Origin: Escherichia coli
GTDB taxonomy: Bacteria > Pseudomonadota > Gammaproteobacteria > Enterobacterales > Enterobacteriaceae
DNA length: 64,000 bases
Assembly: GCF_001677475.2 (NCBI RefSeq)
Contig: NZ_CP015229.1
Reading direction: 5' to 3' (one strand)
The notes beneath the pieces are model-generated. The model was not told the origin of the DNA. It searched no databases and saw only the letters and a program-made list of their open reading frames with translations. Below are positions 39,797 to 58,342 of the stretch, piece by piece. Each line of letters starts with the position of its first letter. Position 1 is the stretch's first letter. A program made the position numbers and the translations under genes.

Positions 39797-39825
39797 TTGT
39801 GTTTTGCTGAAAGGCGATTGCCTTG

Positions 39826-40220: not shown

Positions 40221-40251
40221 ATTTCCTTCCTTGGATATTTTAATCAGCGAG

Positions 40252-41268: not shown

Positions 41269-41295
41269 AACGATTTCCTTTCTTGTAGTAATGGG

Positions 41296-41940
41296 TCACT
41301 CTTTTTTCTCGCTTTCTTCCTCTTCCGGCACCGGTTTGCTGGCGGTTAACAGGAAGGGCGATTGCTGCCAGCGGGTGCGTTTACCCTGTAGCAGCGTGCG
41401 GGTCAGCACTACGCCGATTGCCAGTGAGAGCAGCAACATCAGGCGTAAAATGTTAGTGGTGTTATCCACCTGTTGGGCTTCGGTGGCGAGCGTATGGGTG
41501 TCGAGCGTAAGGCGCAGATAGCCGAGCGGTCCGTTTTTCCCAGCAATTGGTTCGACAATCTGCTGGTTAAAATAGCCGCCCGCTTTTTTGCCGTCGAGCG
41601 CCAACCGGTCGCGCACTTCGACGCTTTCGCCAGAACGGGCGATAAGATCGCCTTGTTCGTCATACACGCCCGCGTCGAGGATACGGCTTTCATCCGTTAA
41701 CTGATCTAGGATCGCCTGAATGCGTTTTTCATCCGGTGAGTCGGTACGCATCAGCGGTGCAACGTTCAGCGTCACCTGACGCGCCAGGGTGCGGGCCAGT
41801 TCTTCCAGCTGTGGATTACGCTGTCGCTGGTGGTTTTGACTAAACCATGACGCTCCCTGCATCAGCGCCACTAACAAGGCAAGACAGAACAGGACAATCA
41901 CTGCCCGATGCAGCCGGAATTTCAGTTTTGTGCGAGTCAT
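41296..41940 (-). CDS. ytjB: Inner membrane protein YtjB (Smp)
   Basis: 214 aa; N-terminal transmembrane segment; conserved between lplA and serB. Confidence 0.9.
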   Translation of the reverse strand: MTRTKLKFRLHRAVIVLFCLALLVALMQGASWFSQNHQRQRNPQLEELARTLARQVTLNVAPLMRTDSPDEKRIQAILDQLTDESRILDAGVYDEQGDLIARSGESVEVRDRLALDGKKAGGYFNQQIVEPIAGKNGPLGYLRLTLDTHTLATEAQQVDNTTNILRLMLLLSLAIGVVLTRTLLQGKRTRWQQSPFLLTASKPVPEEEESEKKE

Positions 41941-42045
41941 CTTCCACCCTTTGAAAATTTGAGACTTAATGTTGCCAGAAGCAATGGATACAAGGTAGCC
42001 TCATGCGTTATTTTCCCTGCTTCGAACGATTTTACAGGAGCCTTA

Positions 42046-43014
42046 ATGCCTAACATTACCTGGTGCGACCTGCCTGAAGATGTCTCTTTATGGCCGGGTC
42101 TGCCTCTTTCATTAAGTGGTGATGAAGTGATGCCACTGGATTACCACGCAGGTCGTAGCGGCTGGCTGCTGTATGGTCGTGGGCTGGATAAACAACGTCT
42201 GACCCAATACCAGAGCAAACTGGGCGCGGCGATGGTGATTGTTGCCGCCTGGTGCGTGGAAGATTATCAGGTGATTCGTCTGGCAGGTTCACTCACCGCG
42301 CGGGCTACGCGCCTGGCCCATGAAGCGCAACTGGATGTCGCCCCGCTGGGGAAAATCCCGCACCTGCGCACGCCGGGTTTGCTGGTGATGGACATGGACT
42401 CCACCGCCATCCAGATTGAATGTATTGATGAAATTGCCAAACTGGCCGGAACGGGCGAGATGGTGGCGGAGGTAACCGAACGGGCGATGCGTGGGGAACT
42501 CGATTTTACCGCCAGCCTGCGCAGCCGTGTGGCGACGCTGAAAGGCGCTGACGCGAACATTTTGCAACAGGTGCGTGAAAATCTGCCGCTGATGCCAGGC
42601 TTAACGCAACTGGTGCTCAAGCTGGAAACGCTGGGCTGGAAAGTGGCGATTGCCTCCGGCGGCTTTACTTTCTTTGCTGAATATCTGCGCGACAAGCTGC
42701 GCCTGACCGCCGTGGTAGCTAATGAACTGGAGATCATGGACGGTAAATTTACCGGCAATGTGATCGGCGACATCGTAGACGCGCAGTACAAAGCTAATAC
42801 CCTGACCCGACTGGCACAGGAGTATGAAATCCCGCTGGCGCAGACCGTGGCGATTGGCGATGGTGCCAACGACCTGCCGATGATCAAAGCGGCAGGGCTG
42901 GGGATTGCCTACCATGCCAAGCCAAAAGTGAATGAAAAGGCGGAAGTCACCATCCGTCACGCTGACCTGATGGGGGTGTTCTGCATCCTCTCCGGCAGCC
43001 TGAATCAGAAGTAA
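42046..43014 (+). CDS. serB: Phosphoserine phosphatase
   Basis: 322 aa from the internal ATG; HAD motifs DMDST and GDGAND. Confidence 0.95.
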   Translation: MPNITWCDLPEDVSLWPGLPLSLSGDEVMPLDYHAGRSGWLLYGRGLDKQRLTQYQSKLGAAMVIVAAWCVEDYQVIRLAGSLTARATRLAHEAQLDVAPLGKIPHLRTPGLLVMDMDSTAIQIECIDEIAKLAGTGEMVAEVTERAMRGELDFTASLRSRVATLKGADANILQQVRENLPLMPGLTQLVLKLETLGWKVAIASGGFTFFAEYLRDKLRLTAVVANELEIMDGKFTGNVIGDIVDAQYKANTLTRLAQEYEIPLAQTVAIGDGANDLPMIKAAGLGIAYHAKPKVNEKAEVTIRHADLMGVFCILSGSLNQK

Positions 43015-43062
43015 TTGCACGCCCGTCATCCTGCGGGCGGCACAGCATTAACGAGGTACACC

Positions 43063-44445
43063 GTGGCAAAAGCTCCAAAACGCGCCTTTGTTTGTAATGA
43101 ATGCGGGGCAGATTATCCGCGCTGGCAAGGGCAGTGCAGCGCCTGTCATGCCTGGAACACCATCACCGAGGTGCGTCTTGCTGTGTCGCCAACGGTGGCG
43201 CGTAACGAGCGTCTCAGTGGCTATGCCGGTAGCGCCGGAGTGGCGAAAGTCCAGAAACTGTCGGATATCAGCCTTGAGGAATTGCCGCGTTTTTCTACCG
43301 GATTTAAAGAGTTCGACCGCGTACTAGGCGGTGGGGTAGTGCCGGGAAGCGCCATTCTGATTGGCGGTAACCCAGGTGCGGGGAAATCCACGCTGCTACT
43401 GCAAACGCTGTGCAAACTGGCCCAGCAGATGAAAACGCTGTATGTCACTGGCGAAGAGTCGCTGCAACAGGTGGCAATGCGCGCTCATCGCCTTGGCCTG
43501 CCGACTGACAATCTCAATATGTTGTCGGAAACCAGCATCGAGCAGATCTGCCTGATTGCCGAAGAAGAGCAACCGAAGCTGATGGTAATTGACTCCATCC
43601 AGGTGATGCATATGGCGGATGTTCAGTCATCGCCTGGCAGCGTGGCGCAGGTGCGTGAAACGGCGGCTTATCTGACGCGCTTCGCCAAAACACGCGGCGT
43701 GGCGATTGTCATGGTTGGGCACGTAACCAAAGATGGCTCGCTGGCTGGCCCTAAAGTGCTGGAACACTGTATCGACTGTTCGGTGCTTCTGGATGGCGAT
43801 GCCGACTCCCGTTTTCGCACCTTACGCAGCCATAAAAACCGCTTCGGCGCGGTGAATGAGCTGGGCGTCTTCGCGATGACTGAACAGGGGCTGCGTGAAG
43901 TCAGCAACCCTTCCGCCATCTTTTTAAGCCGCGGTGATGAAGTGACCTCCGGTAGCTCAGTGATGGTGGTATGGGAAGGAACGCGTCCACTGCTGGTGGA
44001 GATCCAGGCGCTGGTCGATCACTCGATGATGGCGAATCCACGCCGCGTCGCAGTAGGGCTGGAGCAAAACCGTCTGGCAATCCTGCTGGCGGTGCTGCAC
44101 CGTCACGGTGGGTTGCAAATGGCCGATCAGGATGTATTTGTTAACGTGGTCGGCGGCGTGAAGGTGACGGAAACCAGCGCCGATTTAGCGTTACTGCTGG
44201 CGATGGTTTCCAGCCTGCGTGACAGACCGCTGCCACAGGATCTGGTGGTGTTTGGTGAAGTCGGGCTGGCAGGGGAGATCCGCCCCGTGCCCAGCGGTCA
44301 GGAACGAATTTCAGAAGCGGCGAAACACGGTTTTCGCCGGGCGATTGTTCCGGCGGCTAACGTACCGAAAAAAGCGCCGGAAGGGATGCAGATTTTTGGC
44401 GTTAAAAAACTCTCCGACGCGCTTAGCGTGTTCGACGACTTATAA
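43063..44445 (+). CDS. radA: DNA repair protein RadA (Sms)
   Basis: 460 aa from GTG at 43063; N-terminal C4 zinc finger, Walker A GNPGAGKST, C-terminal Lon-like domain. Confidence 0.95.
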   Translation: MAKAPKRAFVCNECGADYPRWQGQCSACHAWNTITEVRLAVSPTVARNERLSGYAGSAGVAKVQKLSDISLEELPRFSTGFKEFDRVLGGGVVPGSAILIGGNPGAGKSTLLLQTLCKLAQQMKTLYVTGEESLQQVAMRAHRLGLPTDNLNMLSETSIEQICLIAEEEQPKLMVIDSIQVMHMADVQSSPGSVAQVRETAAYLTRFAKTRGVAIVMVGHVTKDGSLAGPKVLEHCIDCSVLLDGDADSRFRTLRSHKNRFGAVNELGVFAMTEQGLREVSNPSAIFLSRGDEVTSGSSVMVVWEGTRPLLVEIQALVDHSMMANPRRVAVGLEQNRLAILLAVLHRHGGLQMADQDVFVNVVGGVKVTETSADLALLLAMVSSLRDRPLPQDLVVFGEVGLAGEIRPVPSGQERISEAAKHGFRRAIVPAANVPKKAPEGMQIFGVKKLSDALSVFDDL

Positions 44446-44465
44446 TGAGGAATACGGAGGGAGAT

Positions 44466-45698
44466 ATGTCGTCATTTGATTACCTGAAAACTGCCATCAA
44501 GCAACAGGGCTGCACGCTACAGCAGGTAGCTGATGCCAGCGGTATGACCAAAGGGTATTTAAGCCAGTTACTGAATGCCAAAATTAAAAGCCCCAGCGCG
44601 CAAAAGCTGGAGGCGCTGCACCGTTTTTTGGGGCTTGAATTTCCCCGGCAGAAGAAAACCATTGGTGTCGTATTCGGTAAGTTCTACCCGCTGCATACCG
44701 GACATATCTACCTTATCCAGCGCGCCTGTAGCCAGGTTGACGAGCTGCATATCATTATGGGTTTTGACGATACCCGCGACCGCGCGTTGTTTGAAGACAG
44801 CGCCATGTCGCAGCAGCCCACCGTGCCGGATCGTCTGCGCTGGTTATTGCAAACCTTTAAATATCAGAAAAATATCCGTATTCATGCTTTCAACGAAGAG
44901 GGCATGGAGCCGTATCCGCACGGCTGGGATGTGTGGAGCAACGGCATCAAAAAGTTTATGGCTGAAAAGGGGATCCAGCCGGACCTGATCTACACCTCGG
45001 AAGAAGCCGATGCGCCACAGTATATGGAACATCTGGGGATCGAAACGGTGCTGGTCGATCCGAAGCGTACCTTTATGAGTATCAGCGGTGCGCAGATCCG
45101 CGAAAACCCGTTCCGCTACTGGGAATATATTCCCACCGAAGTGAAGCCGTTCTTTGTGCGTACCGTGGCGATCCTTGGCGGTGAGTCGAGCGGTAAATCC
45201 ACCCTGGTAAACAAACTTGCTAATATCTTCAACACTACCAGTGCATGGGAATATGGTCGCGATTATGTCTTTTCACACCTTGGCGGTGATGAGATCGCAT
45301 TGCAGTATTCCGACTACGATAAAATCGCGCTGGGACACGCTCAATACATTGATTTTGCAGTGAAATATGCCAATAAAGTGGCGTTTATTGACACTGATTT
45401 TGTCACTACCCAGGCGTTTTGTAAAAAGTACGAAGGGCGTGAGCATCCGTTCGTGCAGGCGCTGATCGATGAATACCGTTTTGATCTGGTTATCTTGCTG
45501 GAGAACAACACCCCTTGGGTGGCGGATGGTTTACGCAGCCTCGGCAGTTCGGTGGATCGCAAAGAGTTCCAGAACTTGCTGGTGGAGATGCTGGAAGAGA
45601 ACAATATCGAATTTGTGCGGGTTGAAGAGGACGATTACGACAGCCGTTTCCTGCGCTGTGTGGAGCTGGTGCGGGAGATGATGGGGGAGCAGAGATAA
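44466..45698 (+). CDS. nadR: NadR: NAD biosynthesis regulator / NMN adenylyltransferase / ribosylnicotinamide kinase
   Basis: 410 aa from the internal ATG; N-terminal HTH, GKFYPLHTGH adenylyltransferase motif, Walker A GGESSGKST. Confidence 0.95.
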   Translation: MSSFDYLKTAIKQQGCTLQQVADASGMTKGYLSQLLNAKIKSPSAQKLEALHRFLGLEFPRQKKTIGVVFGKFYPLHTGHIYLIQRACSQVDELHIIMGFDDTRDRALFEDSAMSQQPTVPDRLRWLLQTFKYQKNIRIHAFNEEGMEPYPHGWDVWSNGIKKFMAEKGIQPDLIYTSEEADAPQYMEHLGIETVLVDPKRTFMSISGAQIRENPFRYWEYIPTEVKPFFVRTVAILGGESSGKSTLVNKLANIFNTTSAWEYGRDYVFSHLGGDEIALQYSDYDKIALGHAQYIDFAVKYANKVAFIDTDFVTTQAFCKKYEGREHPFVQALIDEYRFDLVILLENNTPWVADGLRSLGSSVDRKEFQNLLVEMLEENNIEFVRVEEDDYDSRFLRCVELVREMMGEQR

Positions 45699-45736
45699 TC
45701 ATCTTTATAAGATGTTGAGTGGGATTACTAATTCAA

Positions 45737-45771
45737 AAGTGTACTTAGTACTCCATTTCGGTGTACAATGT
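45737..45771 (+). promoter_or_regulatory. Two operator-like 13-mers (GTGTAC-N3-GTAC) in the promoter of the toxin-antitoxin pair
   Basis: gtgtacttagtac (45737-45749) and gtgtacaatgtac (45759-45771), centres 22 bp apart, just upstream of the SD ggagggg and the ATG at 45790. Confidence 0.4.
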
Positions 45772-45789
45772 ACCTGCCAGGGAGGGGTG

Positions 45790-46122
45790 ATGGGCAAGGC
45801 GATAATATTTATAGAGACGCCAATGTTTACGCGTCAGATCAAGCAGATTGCAACCGATGATGAATTAAAGGAATTACAAAAAGAACTCATCGGAACTCCC
45901 GATAAAGGTGATCTCATTCAGCAGACTGGTGGATTGCGTAAAGTCCGAATGGCTGCGGGTTCACAGGGAAAAAGTGGCAGTGTCAGAATAATTTACTTTC
46001 TGGCGACGGAAGAGATTATTTATTTGATTATGGCCTATCCGAAAAATGCCAAAGATAGTCTGACAGATACGGAAAAAGCTCAACTAAAGAAGTTGACGAA
46101 ACTGCTCAAAGGCGAGGTATAA
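45790..46122 (+). CDS. RelE/ParE-superfamily toxin, HigB-2 / Gp49-like
   Basis: 110 aa; GTGGLRK-V/I-R ... GKSGS-RIIYF ... AYPKN...LT core matches HigB-2-type toxins as I recall them; toxin-first gene order. Confidence 0.65.
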   Translation: MGKAIIFIETPMFTRQIKQIATDDELKELQKELIGTPDKGDLIQQTGGLRKVRMAAGSQGKSGSVRIIYFLATEEIIYLIMAYPKNAKDSLTDTEKAQLKKLTKLLKGEV

Positions 46123-46123
46123 A

Positions 46124-46408
46124 ATGAGTTTTTTTGATGAGTTGAAAACCTCTCTGGAAGAGGCTGTCGAGATTAAACAAGGTTTAAAAGAACCTGCACG
46201 GGTGACCCGCTACGAAATTGCGGATGTTAAAGCTATTCGTGAGCAACTCAACGTTTCTCAAAGTGAGATGGCAAAAGCTCTGGGAACCAGTGTGGATACC
46301 ATTAAAAGCTGGGAATCGAAGCGAAGAAATCCTACGGGATTGGCTGCAAAAGTACTTGCCACAATTAAAGAAAATCCTGCCTTTTTCCGGGAACTTGCCT
46401 CCCATTAA
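46124..46408 (+). CDS. XRE-family HTH antitoxin, HigA-2-like
   Basis: 94 aa; starts 1 nt after the toxin stop; C-terminal HTH LNVSQSEMAKALGTSVDTIKSWESKRRNPTG. Confidence 0.65.
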   Translation: MSFFDELKTSLEEAVEIKQGLKEPARVTRYEIADVKAIREQLNVSQSEMAKALGTSVDTIKSWESKRRNPTGLAAKVLATIKENPAFFRELASH

Positions 46409-47224
46409 TCATTTAACTAATACCGGATGCGATGCTGGCGCGCCGCACCCGGCATTTTACGCATTACTTCGCAATACGCTTGTACTTGATACGCTTCGGC
46501 TCCAGCGCGTTTGCGCCCAGCGTGCGTTTTTTGTACTCTTCGTACTCGGTAAAGTTACCTTCGAAGAACTCAACTTTACCTTCATCCTGGTAGTCCAGGA
46601 CGTGGGTGGCGATATGGTCGAGGAACCAACGGTCGTGCGAGATAACCATCGCGCAGCCCGGGAACTCCAGCAGGGCGTTTTCCAGCGCGCGCAGGGTTTC
46701 GATATTCAGGTCGTTAGTTGGTTCGTCGAGCAGCAGCATGTTGCCGCCAACCTGCAGCAGCTTCGCCAGATGCAGACGACCGCGCTCACCACCGGAAAGT
46801 TCACCAACGCGTTTACCTTAAAGTTAAAGCGGCCAACGTAGGCGCGGCTTGGCATCTCGGTGTTGCCGATCTTCATGATATCCAGCCCGCCGGAAACTTC
46901 TTCCCAAACGGTTTTGCGGTTATCCATTGAGTCACGGAACTGATCAACCGATGCCAGTTTCACCGTTTCACCCAGAGTGATAGTGCCGCTGTCCGGCTGT
47001 TCCTGACCAGAGATCATACGGAACAACGTCGATTTGCCCGTACCGTTCGGACCGATGATCCCGACGATCGCTCCTTTCGGGATCGAGAAGCTCAGGGAGT
47101 CAATCAGCAGACGATCGCCATAGGATTTACGCAGGTTGCTGACTTCCAGCACTTTGTCGCCCAGACACGGTCCAGGTGGAATAAACAGTTCGTTGGTTTC
47201 GTTGCGTTTCTGATATTCGGTGCT
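46371..47224. repeat. Direct repeat copy 1 (~855 bp): antitoxin 3' end plus a decayed ettA 3' third
   Basis: About 95 percent identical to 51271-52126, with small deletions (for example ~14 bp near 46815) and scattered substitutions. Confidence 0.85.
46464..47224 (-). pseudogene. ettA 3'-terminal fragment (second ABC-F ATPase domain), frameshifted
   Basis: ORFs 46464..46739 and 46706..47152 together are collinear with the C-terminal ~250 aa of EttA but in two frames, with several substitutions relative to the intact copy. Confidence 0.85.
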
Positions 47225-47302
47225 TCATACTCCAACCGACCAGTTGCGTAGCCAGAATGCAATCAAATCTGACAGTCCGCTTCTGCGCGCGCTTTGGTCT
47301 AT

Positions 47303-47488
47303 TTACCGGAGTAAATCAGCGGGCCGTGGAAAATTATGCGCAGCGCTTCTGCTGATTTGCGTACCTTCGCTGATGATAAGTCCTGCACTAGCGCGCTGCG
47401 CGTAATAGTTCGCCATCATGTCAGTCGCAACGTCACCCGCACGGGAACGTGTCATCGGTGGCATTACAATACGGTTTTTTAATGGCAA
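47303..47488 (-). pseudogene. Old-yellow-enzyme family NADH:flavin oxidoreductase, N-terminal remnant
   Basis: 61 aa fragment PLKNRIVMPPMTRSRAGD...YYAQRASAGLIISEGTQIS is the conserved OYE N-terminal block; in-frame stop 9 codons upstream and no continuation. Confidence 0.5.
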
Positions 47489-47536
47489 CGCATTCAGCGC
47501 ATATTTAGCAAATTACGTAATGGGTCCCTTGCGCGG

Positions 47537-47749
47537 TTATTTGTACAGTTCGGCACTCATGGTGACGGTATTGCCCATGCGAGCGCTGGTGATTTTGTAT
47601 TCAGAGGCGTTTATCTCTTTCGCTTTCTGCGCAATAACCGCTTCAGCGGAATCCAGTGTTGTACCGGTTGCTGTCACGCTTTGCGCCGATGCGTTAAACG
47701 CCGCGACAGAGAAAAGAGAAGCTGTAAAAATTGCGATGATCGTTTTCAT
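47537..47749 (-). CDS. DUF1471 (YdgH/BhsA/McbA-like) small secreted protein
   Basis: 70 aa from the internal ATG; signal peptide MKTIIAIFTASLFSVAAFNASA; C-terminal ITSA...YK pattern of the family. Confidence 0.7.
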   Translation of the reverse strand: MKTIIAIFTASLFSVAAFNASAQSVTATGTTLDSAEAVIAQKAKEINASEYKITSARMGNTVTMSAELYK

Positions 47750-47906
47750 GTTTATATTCCAGAGTGTCTTAATTGTTTGGCGTTTATTAACGCGATGGGA
47801 AGAGAATACGCCTGCTGCCTGATAACATAAATGATACAAATGACAATAGACTATTCTGTTTTTGTTAATAATCAGACGCCGGACGTTCCGACGCCTGTCG
47901 ATCGCA

Positions 47907-48323
47907 TCAGGCAACAAAGTTGTCCTTCAGCGCCTTGAGACCATCCCGATAAATGCCGGTAAACAGCGCCTCGGCCTCTTCGTTCGTCACATTCACCGGG
48001 GTGAATTCACCGAACCATTCCACACGGGAAACCTGGCTGTCGGCGGTTTCATGAACGGTAATGGTGGAGAGGTAATCCACCACCGGGAACGGTGCCTGAA
48101 TAATGGAATAGGTATAACTGCGTTGACGGTTATCAAACGCTTCCAGACGTTCAACCACAGTGCCGCCGTCAGAGGTTGTCAGCGAACGAACGCGACCGCC
48201 TTCTGTCACCACGCTTTTCGGGATGAATGGCAGCCAGTCTGGCAGCGCATCAAAGCCGCCCATCAATTGCCATACTGCGTCGGCAGAAGCCGGAATTTCG
48301 ATCGATACAGTTGTTTTAGCCAT
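47907..48323 (-). CDS. SRPBCC-family (Bet v1-like / polyketide cyclase-like) protein
   Basis: 138 aa; size and secondary-structure pattern of SRPBCC ligand-binding proteins; co-directional with the reductase genes. Confidence 0.6.
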   Translation of the reverse strand: MAKTTVSIEIPASADAVWQLMGGFDALPDWLPFIPKSVVTEGGRVRSLTTSDGGTVVERLEAFDNRQRSYTYSIIQAPFPVVDYLSTITVHETADSQVSRVEWFGEFTPVNVTNEEAEALFTGIYRDGLKALKDNFVA

Positions 48324-48348
48324 GATAATTTTCTCTTAATTTGTAGGG

Positions 48349-49146
48349 TTACATTGTCAGGGTGTCGACGACGCCGCCATCGACGCGCAGGGCTGCCCCT
48401 GTGGTTGCCGAGGAAAGCGGTGACGCGAGATAAACCGCCAGATTCGCCACTTCTTCCACATCCGCCGCACGCTGGATGATGGAGCTCGGACGCGAGGTTT
48501 TAACAAACTCATCGGCCTGTTCACGCGCACTGCGCCCCGATTGTGCAGCGGCATCCGCCAGCATCTCTTTCAGGCCATCGGTAAAGGTTGGCCCTGGCAG
48601 AATGGCGTTGACGGTCACACCGGTCCCTGCCAGTCGTTTCGCCAGACCATGAGAAACCGCCAGATTCGCGGCTTTGGTGACGCCGTAGTTGATCATGTCG
48701 CCAGGGATTGCCACGCCGGATTCAGACGAGACAAAGATAATCCGCCCCCAGCCCTGTTTCGTCATGCCTGGCGCATAGTGACGCGCCAGACGAACGCCGG
48801 AGAGGACGTTGACGTTATAGAAGTGCATCCACTCATCATCCGGAACGCTAAAGAAATCTTTATCGTTAAAAATGCCCAGATTATTGACCAGCACATCAGC
48901 CGTTGGGACTGCAGCGATCAGCGCAGCCACGCCGTCTTCGGTGCTGAGATCGGCCACCACGCCGCGCAGTGACGCCGTGGGAGTTTGTGCCGCAATCGCA
49001 GCCATGGCATCATCAACGCCGCGCTGTTTACGGCCGACGACAACCACCGTTGCGCCTGCTTTTGCCAGTCCGGCGGCGATACCCTGCCCAATGCCGGAGG
49101 TTGAGCCGCTGACCACCGCGACTTTACCTGTCAGATCCAGTTTCAT
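48349..49146 (-). CDS. Short-chain dehydrogenase/reductase (SDR) family oxidoreductase
   Basis: 265 aa from the internal ATG MKLDLTGKVAVVSGSTSGIGQG (TGxxxGxG cofactor motif); NNLG motif. Confidence 0.85.
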   Translation of the reverse strand: MKLDLTGKVAVVSGSTSGIGQGIAAGLAKAGATVVVVGRKQRGVDDAMAAIAAQTPTASLRGVVADLSTEDGVAALIAAVPTADVLVNNLGIFNDKDFFSVPDDEWMHFYNVNVLSGVRLARHYAPGMTKQGWGRIIFVSSESGVAIPGDMINYGVTKAANLAVSHGLAKRLAGTGVTVNAILPGPTFTDGLKEMLADAAAQSGRSAREQADEFVKTSRPSSIIQRAADVEEVANLAVYLASPLSSATTGAALRVDGGVVDTLTM

Positions 49147-49165
49147 CGTTTTCTCACCAGGTTGA

Positions 49166-50176
49166 TTAACGGGTCGGCAGCGGAGCGTTTTCCGCAACCA
49201 GATTTTGACGGCGCATTTCTGCCCAGAATTCAGCCGGAACAGGCGCATTCAGTGCAGCCAGATCTTCTGCCATACGGCCAGGACGGCTGGAGCCAGGAAT
49301 AACCGCTGCAACGGCCGGGTTTGCCAGCGCGAACTGCAGCGCAGCTGCTTTAACGTTCACATTGAAACGTGTGGCAATGGCGTTAATTTGCGCCACTTTC
49401 TGCTGGATGGCCGCAGAGGCTTTCTGATATTCAAAGTGCTCGCCGCCTGCCAGTACGCCAGAGCTGTATGGACCGCCCACAACGATATCCACGTTCTGTT
49501 CCAGTGCTTCTGGCATCAGGCGTTGCAGCGCACGTTCGTGATCCAGCAGGGAATAACGCCCCGCCAGCAGGAAAGCATCTGGCTTCGGTTCGTCCAGCGC
49601 CAGCGTCAGTTCGCAAGGTTCGACGCGGTTCACACCTAGTCCCCAGGCTTTAATCACACCTTCGTCACGCAAACGTGTCAGTGCACGAAACGCACCGGTA
49701 CGGGCAATGTTGAACTGCTCCAGCCAGCTGTCACCGTAGAAGTCCTGCGCCGGGTCGTGGATCCAGACAATGTCCAGACGGTCTGTTTTCAGGCGTTTCA
49801 GGCTGTCTTCAATCGAGCGCAGCGTGGCGTCAGCAGAGTAGTCATTCAGAATTTTGTTTTTCAGGCCGTGTTCGAACAGGCCACCTTTTTCACCGAAATC
49901 CCGTTTTGCCGGATCTTCCATTTCGTCCAGCATGATGCGACCGACTTTGCTACTCAGAACGTATTCATCGCGTGGATACTGAGACAGCGCTTCACCCATG
50001 CGGATTTCAGAAAGGCCAGAGCCGTACAGCGGCGCGGTATCAAAGTAACGCACACCCAGGTTCCAGGCTTCGCTCACGGTGGCGTGGGCCTCTTCTTCCG
50101 GAATGGCACGGAACATGTTGCCGAGTGGTGCGCCGCCTAAGCCAATTTTGCCGGGGAGTAAATTTTTAATGCTCAT
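49166..50176 (-). CDS. Aldo-keto reductase family oxidoreductase
   Basis: 336 aa; AKR motifs (G.G...G, FDTAPLYG, IPGSSRP). Confidence 0.85.
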   Translation of the reverse strand: MSIKNLLPGKIGLGGAPLGNMFRAIPEEEAHATVSEAWNLGVRYFDTAPLYGSGLSEIRMGEALSQYPRDEYVLSSKVGRIMLDEMEDPAKRDFGEKGGLFEHGLKNKILNDYSADATLRSIEDSLKRLKTDRLDIVWIHDPAQDFYGDSWLEQFNIARTGAFRALTRLRDEGVIKAWGLGVNRVEPCELTLALDEPKPDAFLLAGRYSLLDHERALQRLMPEALEQNVDIVVGGPYSSGVLAGGEHFEYQKASAAIQQKVAQINAIATRFNVNVKAAALQFALANPAVAAVIPGSSRPGRMAEDLAALNAPVPAEFWAEMRRQNLVAENAPLPTR

Positions 50177-50309
50177 AAGATGTCCTCAATTATTCGGTTT
50201 GGGTTTGGGCGTTTTTTTGCTATCGCCCTGTGACGTGGATCACAATACCTTGCGAGGTTGTGACTTGATAGGACATAATTCGTCTGACTTAAGTCCTTTG
50301 AGGTCTAAC

Positions 50310-51197
50310 ATGATTGATTTACGCCAACTGAAGTACTTCGTGGTGGTCGCAGAAGAAGAGCACGTAGGACGCGCAGCCGAGCGATTACATATCTCGCAAT
50401 CGCCGCTGAGCCGCCAGATTGCACAACTGGAAGAACGGCTGGGGCTGACGCTGTTTGAGCGTAATCAGCAGCGCATTCGCCTGACCGCTGATGGACAGAC
50501 ATTCCTTGCCGAAACACGTTCGTTGCTGACACACGCCAACCGCCTGGAGTCGTTAGGCAAACGCCTGGGACGGGGGGAAGATGGTGGCTTGTGTATTGGC
50601 TATATCGAAAACGCCATGCATTCCGGTGTGCTTTCTACGGCGCTACGTACGTTACGTGTATCGCGTCCGAATGTGCATATCGCACTTTACAGCCAACCAC
50701 CGGCTACCCAGATTGAAGGCCTGCGCCAACGCAGTCTCGATTTTTCTCTGGTCGATACGCCGCCCACCGACAGCGAGCAGGATCTGGAATATATTCAGGT
50801 TCTGGATGATCGAATGTTGTTGGCCTTACCGCAAAATCATCCTCTGGCGCAGGAGGAAAATCTTGTTGCGTCACAACTTGGCGATGAGCAGTGGATTGCG
50901 GTGATTCATAACGACGATGCGCATTCTCGCGATCATTTTGTCGCCGCCTGTGTTAACGCCGGGTTTAATCCTGATATTCGCCTGGAAGCGGGTGAACCCC
51001 TCACGGCATTAGGTCTGGTCGCTGCGGGATTAGGTCTGGCCTTAATTCAAAATAGTCTGCGTCATAATGCGCCGGAAGGGGTGGTATTACGTGAATTGCC
51101 GTGGATGAATTATTCAACGCAATTATGGGCAGCCTGGCATAAAGCCAACCAACGTCCGCTGGTTTCCCATTTCCGCCAGATCCTGCGCGGTGAATAA
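50310..51197 (+). CDS. LysR-family transcriptional regulator, divergent from the AKR/SDR genes
   Basis: 295 aa from the internal ATG; N-terminal HTH LRQLKYFVVVAEEEHVGRAAERLHISQSPLSRQIAQLE; 133 bp divergent intergenic region. Confidence 0.85.
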   Translation: MIDLRQLKYFVVVAEEEHVGRAAERLHISQSPLSRQIAQLEERLGLTLFERNQQRIRLTADGQTFLAETRSLLTHANRLESLGKRLGRGEDGGLCIGYIENAMHSGVLSTALRTLRVSRPNVHIALYSQPPATQIEGLRQRSLDFSLVDTPPTDSEQDLEYIQVLDDRMLLALPQNHPLAQEENLVASQLGDEQWIAVIHNDDAHSRDHFVAACVNAGFNPDIRLEAGEPLTALGLVAAGLGLALIQNSLRHNAPEGVVLRELPWMNYSTQLWAAWHKANQRPLVSHFRQILRGE

Positions 51198-51270
51198 AAC
51201 GTTAAGCGGGAACCATGAGTTCCCGCTTGATTTGAGATGTCAGTCCGCATCTGAGCTAATACGCTTAAAG

Positions 51271-52126
51271 AAAATTTTGCTTTTTTCCGGGGACTAATCA
51301 TTTAACTAATACCGGATGCGATGCTGGCGCGCCGCATCCGGCATTTTACGCATTACTTCGCAATACGCTTGTACTTGATACGCTTCGGCTCCAGCGCGTC
51401 TGCGCCCAGCGTGCGTTTCTTGTACTCTTCGTACTCGGTAAAGTTACCTTCGAAGAACTCAACTTTACCTTCATCCTGGTAATCCAGAATGTGCGTGGCG
51501 ATACGGTCGAGGAACCAACGGTCGTGCGAGATAACCATCGCGCAGCCCGGGAACTCCAGCAGGGCGTTTTCCAGCGCGCGCAGGGTTTCGATATCCAGGT
51601 CGTTGGTTGGTTCGTCGAGCAGCAGCATGTTGCCGCCAACTTGCAGCAGCTTCGCCAGATGCAGACGACCGCGCTCACCGCCGGAGAGTTCACCAACGCG
51701 TTTACCCTGATCAACCCCTTTAAAGTTAAAGCGGCCAACGTAGGCGCGGCTTGGCATCTCGGTGTTGCCGATTTTCATGATATCCAGCCCGCCGGAAACT
51801 TCTTCCCAAACGGTTTTGCTGTTATCCATTGAGTCACGGAACTGATCAACCGATGCCAGTTTCACCGTTTCACCCAAAGTGATGGTGCCGCTGTCCGGCT
51901 GTTCCTGACCAGAGATCATACGGAACAGCGTCGATTTACCCGCACCGTTCGGACCGATGATCCCGACGATCGCCCCTTTCGGGATCGAGAAACTCAGGGA
52001 GTCAATCAGCAGACGATCGCCATAGGATTTACGCAGATTGCTGACTTCCAGCACTTTGTCGCCCAGACGCGGTCCAGGTGGAATAAACAGTTCGTTGGTT
52101 TCGTTACGTTTCTGATATTCGGTGCT
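51271..52126. repeat. Direct repeat copy 2 (~855 bp): degenerate antitoxin 3' remnant plus the intact ettA 3' third
   Basis: Partner of 46371-47224; here the ettA portion is intact and the ~40-bp antitoxin-end remnant carries a deletion. Confidence 0.85.
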
Positions 52127-53020
52127 GTTCAGTTCTTCAAAGCGCGCCAGACGTGCTTTACCTTTCGACTGACGGCCTTTAGTACCTTGACGTACCCACT
52201 CCAGCTCTTTCTCAATCGACTTACGACGCGCAGCTTCTTGTGAAGCTTCCTGCGCCAGACGCTGATCTTTCTGCTCCAGCCAGGAGGAGTAGTTACCTTC
52301 CCACGGAATACCTTCACCGCGGTCCAGTTCGAGGATCCAGCCCGCAACGTTATCGAGGAAGTAACGGTCGTGGGTAATCGCCACAACGGTGCCTTCGAAG
52401 TCGTGCAGGAAGCGTTCCAGCCAGGCCACGGATTCGGCATCCAGGTGGTTGGTCGGTTCGTCGAGCAGCAGCATGTCTGGTTTTTCCAGCAGCAGGCGGC
52501 ACAACGCCACGCGACGACGCTCACCACCGGAGAGGTTAGCGATTTTCGCGTCCCAGTCCGGCAGACGCAGCGCATCCGCCGCACGCTCCAGCTGAACGTT
52601 CAGGTTGTGACCGTCGTGAGCCTGAATGATCTCTTCCAGACGGCCTTGTTCAGCGGCCAGCTTGTCAAAATCGGCATCCGGATCGGCGTACAGTGCATAC
52701 ACTTCATCCAGGCGTTTCAGGGCGTTAACCACTTCAGAAACCGCTTCTTCAATGGACTCACGCACGGTGTGTTCCGGGTTCAGCTGCGGTTCCTGCGGCA
52801 GATAACCAATCTTGATATCCGGTTGCGGACGCGCTTCGCCTTCGATGTCTTTATCAATGCCCGCCATAATGCGCAGCAGGGTGGACTTACCCGCGCCGTT
52901 CAGACCCAGGACACCAATTTTTGCCCCAGGGAAGAAACTCAGAGAGATGTTTTTCAAAATATGACGTTTCGGCGGAACAACTTTGCCGACACGATGCATG
53001 GTATAAACGAATTGAGCCAC
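51353..53020 (-). CDS. ettA: Energy-dependent translational throttle protein EttA (ABC-F ATPase)
   Basis: 555 aa; two ABC domains with Walker A GLNGAGKST and GPNGAGKST and LSGGE signatures. Confidence 0.95.
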   Translation of the reverse strand: MAQFVYTMHRVGKVVPPKRHILKNISLSFFPGAKIGVLGLNGAGKSTLLRIMAGIDKDIEGEARPQPDIKIGYLPQEPQLNPEHTVRESIEEAVSEVVNALKRLDEVYALYADPDADFDKLAAEQGRLEEIIQAHDGHNLNVQLERAADALRLPDWDAKIANLSGGERRRVALCRLLLEKPDMLLLDEPTNHLDAESVAWLERFLHDFEGTVVAITHDRYFLDNVAGWILELDRGEGIPWEGNYSSWLEQKDQRLAQEASQEAARRKSIEKELEWVRQGTKGRQSKGKARLARFEELNSTEYQKRNETNELFIPPGPRLGDKVLEVSNLRKSYGDRLLIDSLSFSIPKGAIVGIIGPNGAGKSTLFRMISGQEQPDSGTITLGETVKLASVDQFRDSMDNSKTVWEEVSGGLDIMKIGNTEMPSRAYVGRFNFKGVDQGKRVGELSGGERGRLHLAKLLQVGGNMLLLDEPTNDLDIETLRALENALLEFPGCAMVISHDRWFLDRIATHILDYQDEGKVEFFEGNFTEYEEYKKRTLGADALEPKRIKYKRIAK

Positions 53021-53230
53021 GTTGGACTTCGCCTCTATGTTTATCGTGATGATGAGTTTTCAAAGGCGAAGTGTAGCCTGTTTCCTTATCTAATCCCAGC
53101 TGGTCAATCACCCTCGCAGTAAAAGTAAAAAAGTGTCCGTAACGTGGCGTAAACGGCAATGACTGGTTAGCATAAATCTATTACGCGGCATGACGCTGCA
53201 TTGATGTATTTACACTTAGAGGATGCGCTT

Positions 53231-55168
53231 GTGGAAAAAGCCAAACACGTTACCTGGCGGCTGTTGGCTGCCGGTGTCTGTCTGCTGACGGTCAGCAGCG
53301 TGGCGCGAGCCGACTCACTGGATGAGCAGCGTAGCCGCTACGCCCAAATCAAGCAGGCCTGGGATAATCGACAAATGGATGTGGTCGAACAAATGATGCC
53401 TGGACTGAAGGATTATCCGCTTTATCCCTACCTGGAATACCGTCAGATCACCGATGACCTGATGAATCAACCGGCGGTGACGGTCACTAACTTTGTTCGC
53501 GCTAACCCCACGCTTCCTCCCGCTCGCACGCTGCAATCTCGTTTCGTCAATGAACTGGCGCGGCGTGAAGACTGGCGTGGCTTGTTAGCCTTTAGCCCGG
53601 AAAAGCCCGGAACTACCGAAGCGCAATGTAATTACTACTATGCGAAATGGAACACCGGGCAGAGTGAAGAAGCCTGGCAAGGGGCGAAAGAGCTGTGGCT
53701 AACCGGCAAGAGCCAGCCTAACGCCTGTGACAAGTTATTTAGCGTCTGGCGTGCGTCAGGTAAACAAGATCCGCTGGCGTATTTAGAGCGTATCCGTCTG
53801 GCGATGAAAGCGGGTAACACTGGACTCGTAACAGTGCTGGCAGGGCAGATGCCTGCCGATTACCAGACTATCGCTTCGGCAATCATTTCACTGGCAAACA
53901 ATCCTAATACGGTACTGACCTTCGCGCGTACAACCGGCGCGACCGATTTTACCCGTCAAATGGCGGCGGTGGCGTTTGCCAGTGTGGCGCGGCAGGATGC
54001 TGAAAATGCACGGCTGATGATCCCATCGCTTGCCCAGGCGCAGCAGCTTAATGAAGATCAGATTCAGGAGCTGCGCGATATCGTCGCCTGGCGTTTGATG
54101 GGCAACGATGTCACCGACGAGCAGGCGAAATGGCGTGATGACGCCATTATGCGTTCGCAATCTACTTCGCTTATTGAACGCCGTGTGCGAATGGCGCTTG
54201 GCACCGGCGATCGTCGCGGCCTGAATACCTGGCTGGCGCGTTTGCCGATGGAGGCGAAAGAGAAAGATGAATGGCGTTACTGGCAGGCGGATTTACTGCT
54301 GGAACGCGGACGTGAAGCTGAAGCAAAAGAGATTTTGCATCAACTCATGCAACAGCGTGGTTTCTACCCGATGGTTGCAGCACAACGCATCGGCGAAGAG
54401 TATGAGCTGAAGATTGATAAAGCGCCGCAGAATGTTGACAGCGCCCTGACTCAGGGGCCGGAGATGGCGCGCGTGCGCGAGTTGATGTACTGGAATCTCG
54501 ATAACACCGCGCGTAGCGAGTGGGCCAATCTGGTGAAGAGCAAGTCTAAAACAGAGCAGGCTCAACTGGCGCGGTATGCTTTCAACAACCAATGGTGGGA
54601 TCTTAGCGTTCAGGCAACGATCGCCGGGAAGCTGTGGGATCATCTGGAAGAGCGATTCCCGCTGGCTTACAACGATCTTTTCAAACGTTACACCAGTGGG
54701 AAGGAGATCCCGCAAAGCTATGCGATGGCGATTGCCCGTCAGGAGAGCGCCTGGAATCCGAAAGTGAAATCGCCGGTAGGGGCCAGCGGCCTGATGCAGA
54801 TTATGCCGGGCACGGCGACCCATACGGTGAAGATGTTCTCTATTCCTGGTTATAGCAGCCCTGGGCAATTGCTGGATCCGGAAACGAATATCAACATTGG
54901 CACCAGTTACCTGCAATATGTTTATCAGCAATTTGGTAATAACCGTATTTTCTCCTCAGCAGCTTATAACGCCGGACCTGGACGGGTGCGAACCTGGCTT
55001 GGCAACAGCGCCGGGCGTATCGACGCTGTGGCATTTGTCGAGAGTATTCCGTTCTCCGAGACGCGCGGTTATGTGAAGAACGTGCTGGCTTATGACGCTT
55101 ACTACCGCTATTTCATGGGGGATAAACCGACGTTGATGAGCGCCACGGAATGGGGACGTCGTTACTGA
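53231..55168 (+). CDS. slt: Soluble lytic murein transglycosylase
   Basis: 645 aa from GTG at 53231 (start uncertain by a few codons; ORF opens at 53201); signal peptide; C-terminal lysozyme-like ES...GLMQIMP motif. Confidence 0.95.
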   Translation: MEKAKHVTWRLLAAGVCLLTVSSVARADSLDEQRSRYAQIKQAWDNRQMDVVEQMMPGLKDYPLYPYLEYRQITDDLMNQPAVTVTNFVRANPTLPPARTLQSRFVNELARREDWRGLLAFSPEKPGTTEAQCNYYYAKWNTGQSEEAWQGAKELWLTGKSQPNACDKLFSVWRASGKQDPLAYLERIRLAMKAGNTGLVTVLAGQMPADYQTIASAIISLANNPNTVLTFARTTGATDFTRQMAAVAFASVARQDAENARLMIPSLAQAQQLNEDQIQELRDIVAWRLMGNDVTDEQAKWRDDAIMRSQSTSLIERRVRMALGTGDRRGLNTWLARLPMEAKEKDEWRYWQADLLLERGREAEAKEILHQLMQQRGFYPMVAAQRIGEEYELKIDKAPQNVDSALTQGPEMARVRELMYWNLDNTARSEWANLVKSKSKTEQAQLARYAFNNQWWDLSVQATIAGKLWDHLEERFPLAYNDLFKRYTSGKEIPQSYAMAIARQESAWNPKVKSPVGASGLMQIMPGTATHTVKMFSIPGYSSPGQLLDPETNINIGTSYLQYVYQQFGNNRIFSSAAYNAGPGRVRTWLGNSAGRIDAVAFVESIPFSETRGYVKNVLAYDAYYRYFMGDKPTLMSATEWGRRY

Positions 55169-55192
55169 TCCGCACGTTTATGATATGCTATC

Positions 55193-55210
55193 GTACTCTT
55201 TAGCGAGTAC
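55193..55210 (+). promoter_or_regulatory. TrpR operator in the trpR promoter (autoregulation)
   Basis: GTACTCTTTAGCGAGTAC palindrome ~50 bp upstream of the trpR start; matches the trp operator GTACT...AGTAC pattern. Confidence 0.55.
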
Positions 55211-55242
55211 AACCGGGGGAGGCATTTTGCTTCCCCCGCTAA

Positions 55243-56105
<863 letters not shown>

Positions 56106-56144
56106 TCAGAAAATTAACGTTACAGCAGTATACGGAAAAAAAGC

Positions 56145-56792
56145 ATGTTACAGGTATACCTAGTCCGCCACGGTGAAACGCAGTGGAACGCCGAGCGACG
56201 TATTCAGGGCCAGTCTGACAGCCCGCTGACCGCCAAAGGTGAGCAACAGGCGATGCAGGTGGCAACCCGTGCCAAAGAGCTTGGCATTACGCATATCATC
56301 AGTAGCGATTTAGGACGCACCCGGCTTACGGCGGAAATCATCGCCCAGGCCTGCGGCTGTGACATCATCTTTGATTCTCGCCTGCGTGAATTAAACATGG
56401 GTGTGCTGGAAAAAAGACATATCGATTCTCTGACCGAAGAAGAAGAGAACTGGCGTCGGCAGCTGGTCAATGGCACCGTTGACGGGCGTATTCCTGAAGG
56501 CGAGTCAATGCAGGAGCTCAGCGATCGCGTCAATGCGGCACTGGAATCTTGCCGGGACTTACCGCAGGGAAGCCGACCGCTGCTGGTGAGCCACGGTATT
56601 GCACTGGGATGCCTGGTGAGTACGATTCTCGGATTACCAGCATGGGCAGAGCGTCGCTTACGTCTGCGTAACTGTTCTATTTCGCGCGTGGATTATCAGG
56701 AAAGCCTGTGGCTGGCGTCTGGCTGGGTCGTTGAAACCGCAGGGGACATCTCGCATCTGGACGCCCCTGCATTAGATGAGCTGCAGCGTTAA
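56145..56792 (+). CDS. gpmB: Probable phosphoglycerate mutase GpmB (YtjC), histidine phosphatase family
   Basis: 215 aa; RHGETQWN catalytic motif. Confidence 0.9.
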   Translation: MLQVYLVRHGETQWNAERRIQGQSDSPLTAKGEQQAMQVATRAKELGITHIISSDLGRTRLTAEIIAQACGCDIIFDSRLRELNMGVLEKRHIDSLTEEEENWRRQLVNGTVDGRIPEGESMQELSDRVNAALESCRDLPQGSRPLLVSHGIALGCLVSTILGLPAWAERRLRLRNCSISRVDYQESLWLASGWVVETAGDISHLDAPALDELQR

Positions 56793-57658
56793 CGACGGAT
56801 CGGAATCAGCAGTTCACAGCGCAGATTAATTGGGCGATCTCCTGCTTTGGCATCTTCTGCCGGGTAGTATCGCTCAATATCCTGACCTTTACGGCGCGTC
56901 AGATTGAGCATTGGCATGCACGTTCCGTATACCGTCAGGATAAACTCCTGCACGCCGGTTCCCAGACCTTCATAGGTAAACATCACATATTCGCCGCCCT
57001 GCAGCATCACCGGATGCCCCGTCAGTACATAGCCATCTGCCTGATCCTGGGCTAACGCGGTGGTATAGAATACCTCTTGTTCGTCGTCTTTATCCTGACT
57101 CGGACGCGTTTCATTCAGGCCGTAGAGCACCGGCGGAATGGTCGGAGCGTTGCCGAGAAAATCGTGCCAGAACTGATAACGCATTTCATGGCGGAAATCA
57201 GAGATTTGCTCCAGCGAACAGGAGTAGCTCTGGGTAACACCAATCAGCGGCGTATCTTCAAGGGTGACAAATTTGTGCTCTGGCATAGTGAATTCACCCA
57301 GACGCAGCGGCGGGCGAATACCAAAGGCGCTCCATTCAGGAGAACGGCGGTAAAGTGCAGGAGTCTGGGCAAACTGCTTCTTGAATGCGCGGGTAAATGT
57401 CTGTTGAGAGTCGAAGCGGTATTGCAGCGCGATGTCCAGAATCGGACGCGCAGTCAGGCGTAGTGCGACCGCCGATTTCGACAAACGACGAGCACGAATA
57501 TACGCGCCAATAGCATGGCCAGTGACATCTTTAAACATTCTCTGTAAGTGCCACTTGGAATAACCTGCTTTCGCCGCTACATTGTCGAGCGACAGGGGCT
57601 GATCCAGATGACCTTCCAGCCAGATTAAAAGGTCGCGAATAATGCCGGCCTGATCCAT
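56789..57658 (-). CDS. rob: Right origin-binding protein Rob (AraC/XylS family)
   Basis: 289 aa; N-terminal dual HTH AraC domain plus GyrI-like C-terminal domain. Confidence 0.95.
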   Translation of the reverse strand: MDQAGIIRDLLIWLEGHLDQPLSLDNVAAKAGYSKWHLQRMFKDVTGHAIGAYIRARRLSKSAVALRLTARPILDIALQYRFDSQQTFTRAFKKQFAQTPALYRRSPEWSAFGIRPPLRLGEFTMPEHKFVTLEDTPLIGVTQSYSCSLEQISDFRHEMRYQFWHDFLGNAPTIPPVLYGLNETRPSQDKDDEQEVFYTTALAQDQADGYVLTGHPVMLQGGEYVMFTYEGLGTGVQEFILTVYGTCMPMLNLTRRKGQDIERYYPAEDAKAGDRPINLRCELLIPIRR

Positions 57659-57868
57659 AAAATATCCTCATCCTTTCAACAACGAGCACCTGACATCAGG
57701 TAATTGGATAATAGCATTTTTTGCTGTTTTAGCATTCAGTGTTTTTTTCTTAGTAGAGTATGTTTTAGGGCTTGACGGAAATAAAAGTATTGAGATTTTG
57801 TTCTTAATCAATATGTTATTTACCGTGACGAACTAATTGCTCGTGTAATAGATAAAAATGGTAACAAT

Positions 57869-58342
57869 ATGAAATACAAGCATTTGATCCTATCTTTAAG
57901 CCTGATAATGCTAGGGCCATTGGCTCATGCAGAAGAAATTGGTTCGGTCGACACCGTATTTAAAATGATCGGCCCGGATCACAAAATTGTTGTGGAAGCC
58001 TTTGACGATCCCGATGTGAAAAATGTCACCTGTTATGTGAGCCGGGCGAAAACCGGTGGTATTAAAGGGGGATTGGGTCTGGCGGAAGATACCTCCGATG
58101 CGGCCATTTCTTGTCAGCAAGTCGGGCCGATTGAACTTTCGGATCGTATTAAAAACGGCAAAGCTCAGGGCGAGGTAGTATTCAAAAAACGCACGTCCCT
58201 GGTCTTTAAGTCGTTACAGGTCGTGCGCTTTTATGACGCCAAACGCAACGCGCTCGCTTATCTGGCTTACTCCGACAAAGTTGTAGAAGGTTCGCCGAAA
58301 AACGCGATTAGCGCGGTTCCTGTCATGCCGTGGCGGCAATAA
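57869..58342 (+). CDS. creA: CreA periplasmic protein
   Basis: 157 aa with signal peptide, immediately upstream of creBC. Confidence 0.9.

Follow-up and report, generated by a model that had tools for sequence, protein, structure and literature searches.

A rare allele of the nadR-ettA interval of Escherichia coli in which an islet lies between two direct repeats of the ettA 3' end

Between the core genes of the Escherichia coli chromosome there are integration hotspots, or islets. Here we analyze one such interval, that between nadR and ettA, in a 64,000-nucleotide stretch of E. coli DNA (NCBI RefSeq assembly GCF_001677475.2, contig NZ_CP015229.1); the whole of this stretch is called the window, and coordinates given without another label refer to it. 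The region corresponds to the E. coli interval serB-radA-nadR ... ettA-slt and contains, between an intact toxin-antitoxin pair and an intact ettA gene, an islet bracketed by two direct repeats made largely of the ettA 3' end. The same arrangement, which we call allele C, was found in the independent complete genome of E. coli GF43 (NZ_CP172127.1). On the basis of a comparison of the structural alleles of this interval, we consider it fairly probable that allele C is a rare derived chimera in which an empty-site allele (B) has been joined to an islet-bearing allele of another type (E); the two repeats of ~860 bp would be the result of this join.

Genes and repeats at the locus

The features of the locus are given below, with their coordinates, strand and the basis of each assignment. 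The letters A to F refer to the structural alleles defined in the next section, L and R denote the left and right repeats, and ettA' is the partial copy of ettA.

45790..46122, plus strand: RelE-family toxin gene, 110 aa, intact (open reading frame; Pfam PF06296, E=6e-10; "RelE/ParE family toxin" in the RefSeq annotation of GF43)
46124..46408, plus strand: nadS, antitoxin/helix-turn-helix (HTH) gene, 94 aa, intact (NCBIfam NadS NF041265, 182 bits over 1-94/94)
46365..47224: left direct repeat L, 860 bp (repeat search and MAFFT)
46464..47224, minus strand: ettA' pseudogene, the 3' 760 bp of ettA with the 5' 900 bp gone (alignment; the GF43 annotation gives a partial ABC protein with a frameshift)
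47225..47285: 61-bp left end of the islet (TCATACTCCAACC...), common to alleles C, D, E and F
47277..47488, minus strand: remnant of an Old Yellow Enzyme (OYE)/NemA-family gene (NCBIfam NF007899; compared with the full-length OYE gene of E. coli E69, locus L006)
47537..47749, minus strand: DUF1471 (BhsA/YdgH-like) small periplasmic stress protein (RefSeq annotation of GF43; NCBIfam)
47907..48323, minus strand: SRPBCC family protein (RefSeq annotation of GF43)
48349..49146, minus strand: short-chain dehydrogenase/reductase (SDR) oxidoreductase (RefSeq annotation of GF43; NCBIfam)
49166..50176, minus strand: aldo/keto reductase (AKR) (RefSeq annotation of GF43; NCBIfam)
50310..51197, plus strand: LysR-family regulator, divergent from the reductase operon (RefSeq annotation of GF43; NCBIfam)
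51204..51228, plus strand: terminator-like hairpin 3' of the LysR gene (sequence comparison)
51231..51264: 34 bp between the cassette and the nadS 3' remnant, found alike in C, D and E alleles
51265..52126: right direct repeat R, 862 bp (repeat search and MAFFT)
51265..51297, plus strand: nadS 3' remnant with an 11-bp deletion (same junction and deletion in the non-duplicated alleles D and E)
51353..53020, minus strand: ettA, intact, 555 aa (open reading frame; annotated as ettA in every compared genome)

The repeats were located by a repeat search and compared by MAFFT alignment. In direct orientation, L and R differ by 29 mismatches among 849 aligned bases (96.6% identity) and by two indels, and the longest of their perfectly matching blocks is 90 bp. 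The repeat L begins with the final 44 bp of the intact nadS gene and continues through a spacer with repetitive extragenic palindromic (REP) and terminator sequences into the 3' 760 bp of ettA; R is composed of a 33-bp remnant of the nadS 3' end and the 3' third of the intact 555-aa ettA. The 11-bp indel is a deletion in R that has removed the last codons of the nadS remnant (GGGGAC joined to TAATC, versus GGGAACTTGCCTCCCATTAATC), and the 13-bp indel is a deletion in L after position 46817 (R 51707-51719, CTGATCAACCCCT) which shifts the reading frame of ettA'. Thus the R copy encodes a full-length, two-domain ABC-F protein, and the L copy is both truncated and frameshifted. An initial annotation, made from the window by itself, had described two homologous direct copies of ~855 bp that had decayed reciprocally, and the pairwise alignment bears out this description. 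Since GF43 independently has the same junctions and both indels, in a gapless alignment of 7.7 kb at 98.7% identity, the possibility of an assembly artefact was rejected. The repeat search also returned, as a third member of the same family (D3), a segment at 52353-52476 that is 74% identical; this is the paralogous first ABC domain within ettA itself, which is expected for an ABC-F protein and lies outside the duplication.

The adjacent RelE and NadS (HTH) genes, which are both intact, have matches to the corresponding families and are separated by 1 nt, are a predicted type II toxin-antitoxin pair. The genes between the two repeats are those named in the initial annotation (LysR, AKR, SDR, SRPBCC, DUF1471 and an OYE remnant), in agreement with the RefSeq annotation of GF43 and with NCBIfam. 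The OYE remnant retains the N-terminal 50 codons and a C-terminal piece, 686 bp having been deleted internally, and in the window it has suffered an additional terminal deletion by comparison with alleles D and F. It had also been stated that no integrase was left at the locus, and indeed there is no open reading frame or annotation for a tyrosine or serine recombinase in window 44000-55000 or in GF43. Likewise, neither replication nor integration functions were found in the islet region among the open reading frames, the RefSeq annotation of GF43 and the NCBIfam matches, and there is no tRNA gene in window 40000-58000.

Structural alleles of the nadR-ettA interval

A census of 5,426 complete E. 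coli genomes revealed at least six structural alleles of the interval, which are the following.

Allele A (K-12 type): nadR, nadS 5' remnant, REP elements, ettA; ~4,270 genomes, a figure obtained only by subtraction of the other alleles
Allele B: nadR, RelE, nadS, ettA; empty site with the toxin-antitoxin pair intact; ~671 genomes
Allele C: the arrangement of the window; 1 complete genome (GF43, from chicken meat)
Allele D: nadR, nadS 5' 155 bp, a 61+22-bp segment, a GNAT acetyltransferase gene, a longer OYE remnant with the remaining islet, and ettA; 20 genomes
Allele E: nadS 5' 155 bp adjoining the 61-bp segment, with a shorter OYE remnant; ~437 genomes
Allele F: as D, with a TauE/SafE exporter gene and a winged-HTH (wHTH) gene replacing the GNAT gene; 21 genomes, including VCSW5 and PCN033

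Allele B occurs mostly in B2 strains, for example UTI89, S88 and ATCC 11775. Its abundance answers a question left by the initial annotation, namely whether empty sites exist: the occupied arrangement is not universal. The islet is present at nadR-ettA in 479 genomes, and 478 of these have neither an ettA' copy nor the toxin gene. A 27-mer spanning the junction peculiar to C had no match among metagenome contigs, and a control 26-mer for the E/D junction was found in 14 contigs. Allele C is therefore very rare (one of the complete genomes and no metagenome contig). The toxin gene is missing from alleles A, D, E and F, and the junction of its deletion (ATAACCGT joined to GACGAAAC) is identical in A (K-12), D and E, which points to a shared ancestry of the nadR side of these three alleles. 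In the K-12-type allele (L003:1846-2007; window 46234 / 51328), the nadS 5' remnant is followed by ~140 bp of palindromic units that resemble REP sequences and bacterial interspersed mosaic elements, and these take the place of the remaining nadS sequence.

How, then, did the islet arrive? The initial annotation had taken the repeats as the mark of its arrival, either by Campbell-type insertion of a circular DNA or by tandem duplication followed by a gain of cargo. The other occupied alleles tell a different story. Alleles D, E and F have the nadS 5' portion (window 46094-46248) beside nadR, where it abuts the left end of the islet, and the 3' portion beside ettA, with no sequence duplicated; the repeat is confined to one of the 479 genomes with the islet. 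This disposition of the two halves means that the islet was originally inserted within nadS, where it replaced 116 bp (46249-46364), so that the primary target was the interior of nadS and not a tRNA or tmRNA gene or the 3' end of a gene. The right junction is identical to the base in C, D and E: the hairpin, the 34-bp spacer and TTAAAGAAAAT...GGGGAC joined to TAATCATT, the 11-bp deletion included. The antitoxin remnant on the right of the islet is hence the 3' half of an insertion-split nadS, and not a product of the duplication.

The same comparison bears on the proposal that the nadS-3'/ettA-3' segment was duplicated in tandem within an empty-site chromosome and that cargo was subsequently captured between the copies. 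The direct orientation of the repeats and the lack of any mobility gene are what such a history would predict. However, the 478 genomes without the duplication have the cargo with the same right junction, 34-bp spacer and 11-bp deletion, and among these non-duplicated alleles are more complete, and thus older, versions of the cargo (D and F), which means that the cargo predates the duplication. Furthermore, when the changes attributable to decay (see below) are removed, L and R are still ~12 mostly synonymous substitutions apart. We regard this explanation as extremely improbable.

The order of the occupied alleles is indicated by two characters. In alleles D and F the OYE C-terminal region is longer by 55-59 bp than in E and C, and this extra sequence is contiguous with the remaining remnant; E and C have one OYE deletion junction in common (GCTTC joined to GGCGCG, with a TTC microhomology). 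Because the extra sequence in D and F is native OYE sequence, the deletion common to E and C is derived. The second character is the left boundary of the islet: the nadS5'/islet junction is common to D, E and F, and in C alone ettA' stands there. Parsimony thus favors the order D/F to E to C, which would require two changes and zero homoplasy, and in this order the duplication is secondary to the islet.

The converse order, with C as the ancestral occupied allele from which E, D and F were derived by losing both the toxin gene and the nadS-3'/ettA' segment, deserves consideration. Allele C occurs in two backgrounds ~2% apart and so must be old, and deletions are common events. Nevertheless, D and F keep cargo and OYE sequence that are gone from C and yet have the nadS5'/islet junction of E; to place C at the root, or between D/F and E, demands that the same deletion was repeated or else that a crossover fell within the 61-bp segment, and the deletion would have to end no more than 2 nt from the ettA'/islet joint. 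We consider this order to be distinctly improbable, although somewhat less so than the tandem duplication.

Although the interval resembles other E. coli integration hotspots and islets in being a multi-allelic segment between core genes, with accessory presence/absence, small cargo swaps, REP elements and gene remnants, it is unlike the generic hotspot in that its allele series can be ordered at nucleotide resolution and in that one of its alleles appears to record a recombination between two others. The small cargo swaps take place in a slot (window 47283/47284) between the conserved 61+22-bp segment and the OYE remnant. The slot contains the GNAT acetyltransferase gene in the 20 genomes with D (L004:1917-2643) and the TauE/SafE exporter and wHTH genes in the 21 with F (L091:5702-7285, L090:323-1906), and it is empty in E and C. 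The cargo of allele F is flanked by a 10-bp inverted repeat (AGCGGAAGTT and AACTTCCGCT).

The ettA'/islet joint and its origin

At its left end (TCATACTCC...) the islet has one and the same sequence in C, D, E and F, and its left-hand partner alone differs, being ettA' in C and the nadS 5' piece in the others. In allele E the joint reads ...GAGCAACT followed directly by TCATACTCC, and in allele C ...TTCGGTGCT followed by TCATACTCC, the end of ettA' reading ..GGTGCT; in an intact ettA the sequence continues past the same point as ...TTCGGTGCT followed by GTTCAG. The complete junction of C is CTGATATTCGGTGCT joined to TCATACTCCAAC. The extra DNA in C, in which the remainder of nadS is followed by the spacer and by 760 bp of ettA, starts exactly where the homology between B and E ends (window 46248) and stops at the first base of the islet. 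The overlap at the joint is 2 nt (CT), and no islet, that is to say recipient, sequence was lost. The two putative parental configurations, B and E, are both common, and homology is found on just one side of the novel joint. A random illegitimate event would have placed the joint at the nadS5'/islet boundary with a probability of ~1 in several hundred, which makes a mechanism directed to this boundary more likely. A possible Chi site near the ettA breakpoint was dropped, the match being only 6 of 8 (CCAGGTGG).

We propose the following sequence of events for the chimera. As the comparison of alleles shows, a cassette without mobility genes, together with its small cargo slot, inserted once into nadS to give D and F, and a later deletion of the cargo and of 59 bp of the OYE remnant produced allele E. 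In the second step, which we infer, DNA from a B-type donor would have recombined with an E-type chromosome by homologous exchange on the nadR side. The donor strand would pair through nadR and the nadS 5' piece, at which the homology between donor and recipient ends; its unpaired 3' tail, made up of what remains of nadS plus the 3' 760 bp of ettA and terminating inside ettA, would escape trimming and, at the branch point, become attached to the islet's first base with the aid of the CT microhomology. The product would have the intact RelE-NadS pair and a truncated ettA' beside the islet, followed by the recipient's own islet, nadS remnant and intact ettA, and ettA' has since undergone neutral decay. 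Such an event would belong to the class of homology-facilitated illegitimate recombination, here resolved at the homology boundary.

Homology-facilitated illegitimate recombination with microhomologies of 3-10 bp is documented, according to PMC6382021, in the naturally transformable bacteria Acinetobacter baylyi, Streptococcus pneumoniae and Pseudomonas stutzeri (de Vries and Wackernagel in 2002; Prudhomme in 2002; Meier and Wackernagel in 2003, as cited there). Allele C resembles this process in having a homology anchor on one side and an illegitimate join at a very short microhomology on the other, and in that donor DNA next to the anchor, with no counterpart at that place in the recipient, would have been carried in. 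It differs from that process in several ways. Allele C is deduced from natural alleles and in an E. coli host, where the DNA would have entered by conjugation or transduction and not by natural transformation; its microhomology is of 2 nt; the join is exactly at the homology boundary, with no deletion in the recipient; and the DNA carried in is homologous to a segment situated 4 kb further on, hence the direct repeats.

Some integrative elements carry a replacement for the 3' end of their target gene, as do e14 and phage 21 in icd and the islands that target tRNA or tmRNA genes. As with elements of the e14/phage 21 type, the insert in C is flanked by a direct duplication of a gene 3' end, one copy being intact and the other a partial pseudo-copy. 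Unlike them, the locus lacks an integrase and a short att core, its repeat is of 860 bp and 3.4% diverged, and 478 of the 479 occupied genomes are without it, the duplication postdating the islet.

The Campbell-type insertion put forward in the initial annotation can be formulated more precisely as the integration, into the nadS-ettA segment of a B-type chromosome, of a circle excised from an E-type chromosome, on which the islet was accompanied by the nadS 3' remnant and by the 3' 760 bp of ettA. A single homologous crossover would then reproduce the exact geometry, in which the intact nadS end is to the left and the deleted remnant to the right, and the ettA'/islet joint would be the point of circle closure; both parental alleles exist, and the CT microhomology could have closed the circle. 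Although the geometry is thus reproduced, the position of the joint is left unexplained, since the circle would have had to close by chance within 2 nt of the nadS5'/islet boundary (~1 in several hundred), and replication or integration functions are absent from the region. Campbell-type insertion also predicts two ancestry breakpoints flanking the islet, with the nadR and slt flanks alike in ancestry, a prediction with which the flanks of GF43 disagree.

The flanks of GF43 were taken from record positions 2430000-2525000 (loci L100 and L104). When compared with the E-type genome NRZ14408, the islet-ettA-slt-thr side diverges by 0.9% over 25.7 kb, up to the junction, and the nadR-radA-serB-deo side by 2.0% over at least 17 kb. 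This step in divergence makes the junction an ancestry breakpoint. For the right flank, 283 genomes have a best-place identity of at least 99%, and its closest relatives are of the E type. On the nadR-deo-prfC-btsT side, 36 kb examined by two queries (a span of ~42 kb) gave no full-length match above 98.6%; for the more distant 25 kb of this sequence the best full-length match in the database was 98.2%. The divergent tract on the nadR side hence covers at least the 36 kb examined within the ~42-kb span. Toward the far end of this tract two prophages break the synteny with NRZ14408. In GF43, therefore, the islet and the ettA/slt flank share one ancestry without a break over 25 kb, and the nadR side alone differs. 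This pattern is consistent with a one-sided exchange and speaks against the insertion of a small circle, and we think the Campbell-type event unlikely.

The window itself is 2-3% diverged, mainly by synonymous differences, from all the complete genomes of the census (30000-53200 compared), its best match over 30000-45500 being VCSW5 with 97.8%; hence it comes from a poorly sampled Escherichia lineage. The C-specific core at 45790-47600 is far closer between the window and GF43 than are their flanks. The toxin-antitoxin genes show 1 mismatch in 710 bp and ettA' 9 in 816 bp, and the segment 47225-47600 has 1 mismatch to GF43, versus 6-20 to alleles E, D and F. In contrast, the flanks and the remaining islet differ by 4.7% at four-fold degenerate sites. 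The left edge of this tract is located within sequence that E-type genomes lack, so that a later exchange between toxin-bearing backgrounds is the better reading of it, and it was not used as evidence of origin.

The state of ettA' provides an indication of the age of the joint. The L copies of the window and of GF43 have in common 8 substitutions that are absent from nine functional ettA alleles, 6 at first and 2 at third codon positions, and 4 of these are nonsynonymous. Of the 36 polymorphisms among the functional alleles, 32 fall at third positions (versus 2 of 8 in ettA'; Fisher p = 7e-4), and the 9 differences between the two L copies are likewise spread over the codon positions. To judge from these codon-position patterns, ettA' is a pseudogene that has decayed neutrally over roughly 1.5% neutral divergence, which implies that allele C is old. 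Once the decay changes are removed, L still has 12-18 mostly synonymous differences from R and from other ettA alleles; accordingly, it is probable that L and R were distinct alleles even before the join.

Several considerations weigh against the proposed chimeric origin of allele C. The illegitimate join is inferred from a single junction; its 2-nt microhomology is weak and below the 3-10 bp typical of homology-facilitated illegitimate recombination, a process that has been demonstrated in naturally transformable species and not in E. coli chromosomes. The order D/F to E to C depends on parsimony over two characters. E. coli genomes are mosaic, and the breakpoint in GF43 could stem from some later recombination; since the core at 45790-47600 is so much more alike than the flanks, later exchanges have blurred the original parents, and donor and recipient are not assignable with certainty. 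Finally, the sampled functional ettA alleles include no clear donor for L, which is ~1.5% (12-18 differences) from all of them.

Direct repeats of a gene 3' end are usually read as the signature of a Campbell-type event, and here they would be a secondary by-product of recombination between alleles. Of the original interpretation, the geometry, the expectation of empty sites and the role of the repeats as a deletion substrate stand; the assigned cause does not, the repeats not being the scar of the islet's insertion. A species-wide comparison of alleles can thus overturn the reading of a single genome. The event is of a known kind and involves no new element or mechanism, and the allele is rare. 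As far as we have found, allele C has not been described previously, though the RefSeq annotation of GF43 does mark ettA' as a pseudogene. The locus offers an ordered series (D/F to E to C) and, for the study of illegitimate recombination in E. coli, a natural junction that is clean, as well as a lineage marker and, in the 860-bp repeats of 96.6% identity, a defined substrate for spontaneous loss of the islet. With this identity and with perfectly matching blocks as long as 90 bp, the repeats could still serve for a RecA-mediated deletion of the islet. If the crossover fell left of the 13-bp deletion, the product would be a B-like allele with an intact ettA frame, and if it fell to the right, a frameshifted ettA. 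None of the database genomes looks like such a deletion product, the best match outside GF43 to the toxin-nadS-ettA' segment having 97.1% identity.

The cassette at other loci and neighboring polymorphisms

The homology of the window to copies of the cassette at other chromosomal sites spans 47277-51230 and stops at the hairpin (51228-51230). In E. coli E69 (L006:7919-12726), a cassette with a complete OYE gene is located between yhiN/pitA and a ProA defence gene, and in E. whittamii (L007:7917-12081) a copy of the cassette is found between glyS and ghrB; the cassette is also present in Yokenella and Trabulsiella, and copies lie on L008, L010 and L012. At these differing sites the copies have no mobility gene, and their LysR-side end is always at the terminator hairpin. 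The 686-bp internal deletion of the OYE gene is common to the E. whittamii copy and the nadS-site copies, which suggests a transfer of the cassette between the glyS-ghrB locus of E. whittamii and the nadS site. Alignments of the 61-bp left end to the native OYE C-terminal end or to a paralogue are weak.

On family resemblance, the cassette may be a group of reductases, governed by LysR, that serve in electrophile or carbonyl stress. It is similar, at the family level only, to NemA/YqhD-type detoxification clusters under LysR control in that it unites an OYE (NemA-like) gene with AKR, SDR, SRPBCC and DUF1471 stress-protein genes and a divergent LysR gene; unlike these clusters, its OYE gene has been destroyed in all the nadS-site alleles.

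A broader reading is offered only tentatively, as a possibility of modest weight. Allele C might be a preserved natural case of illegitimate recombination resolved at a homology boundary, the donor 3' tail having been ligated or primed exactly where the homology between donor and recipient ends. This process might be an overlooked general source of gene-end duplications at islets, and the LysR-oxidoreductase cassette, which has moved among no fewer than three Escherichia loci without a recombinase, might represent, with its cargo slot, a recurring route of exchange that is free of mobility genes.

In one F-type contig from a food metagenome, an IS200-family element with a Y1 transposase follows immediately after the LysR hairpin (L090:5857-6563; window 51227-51232). 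Upstream of the islet locus, the first 2.7 kb of the query 30000-45500 (30000-32692) is unmatched in many genomes, and the region of yjjJ, which encodes a HipA-like toxin, near lplA/deoD (~39000-40250) is present in some genomes and absent in others; both look like further presence/absence polymorphisms.

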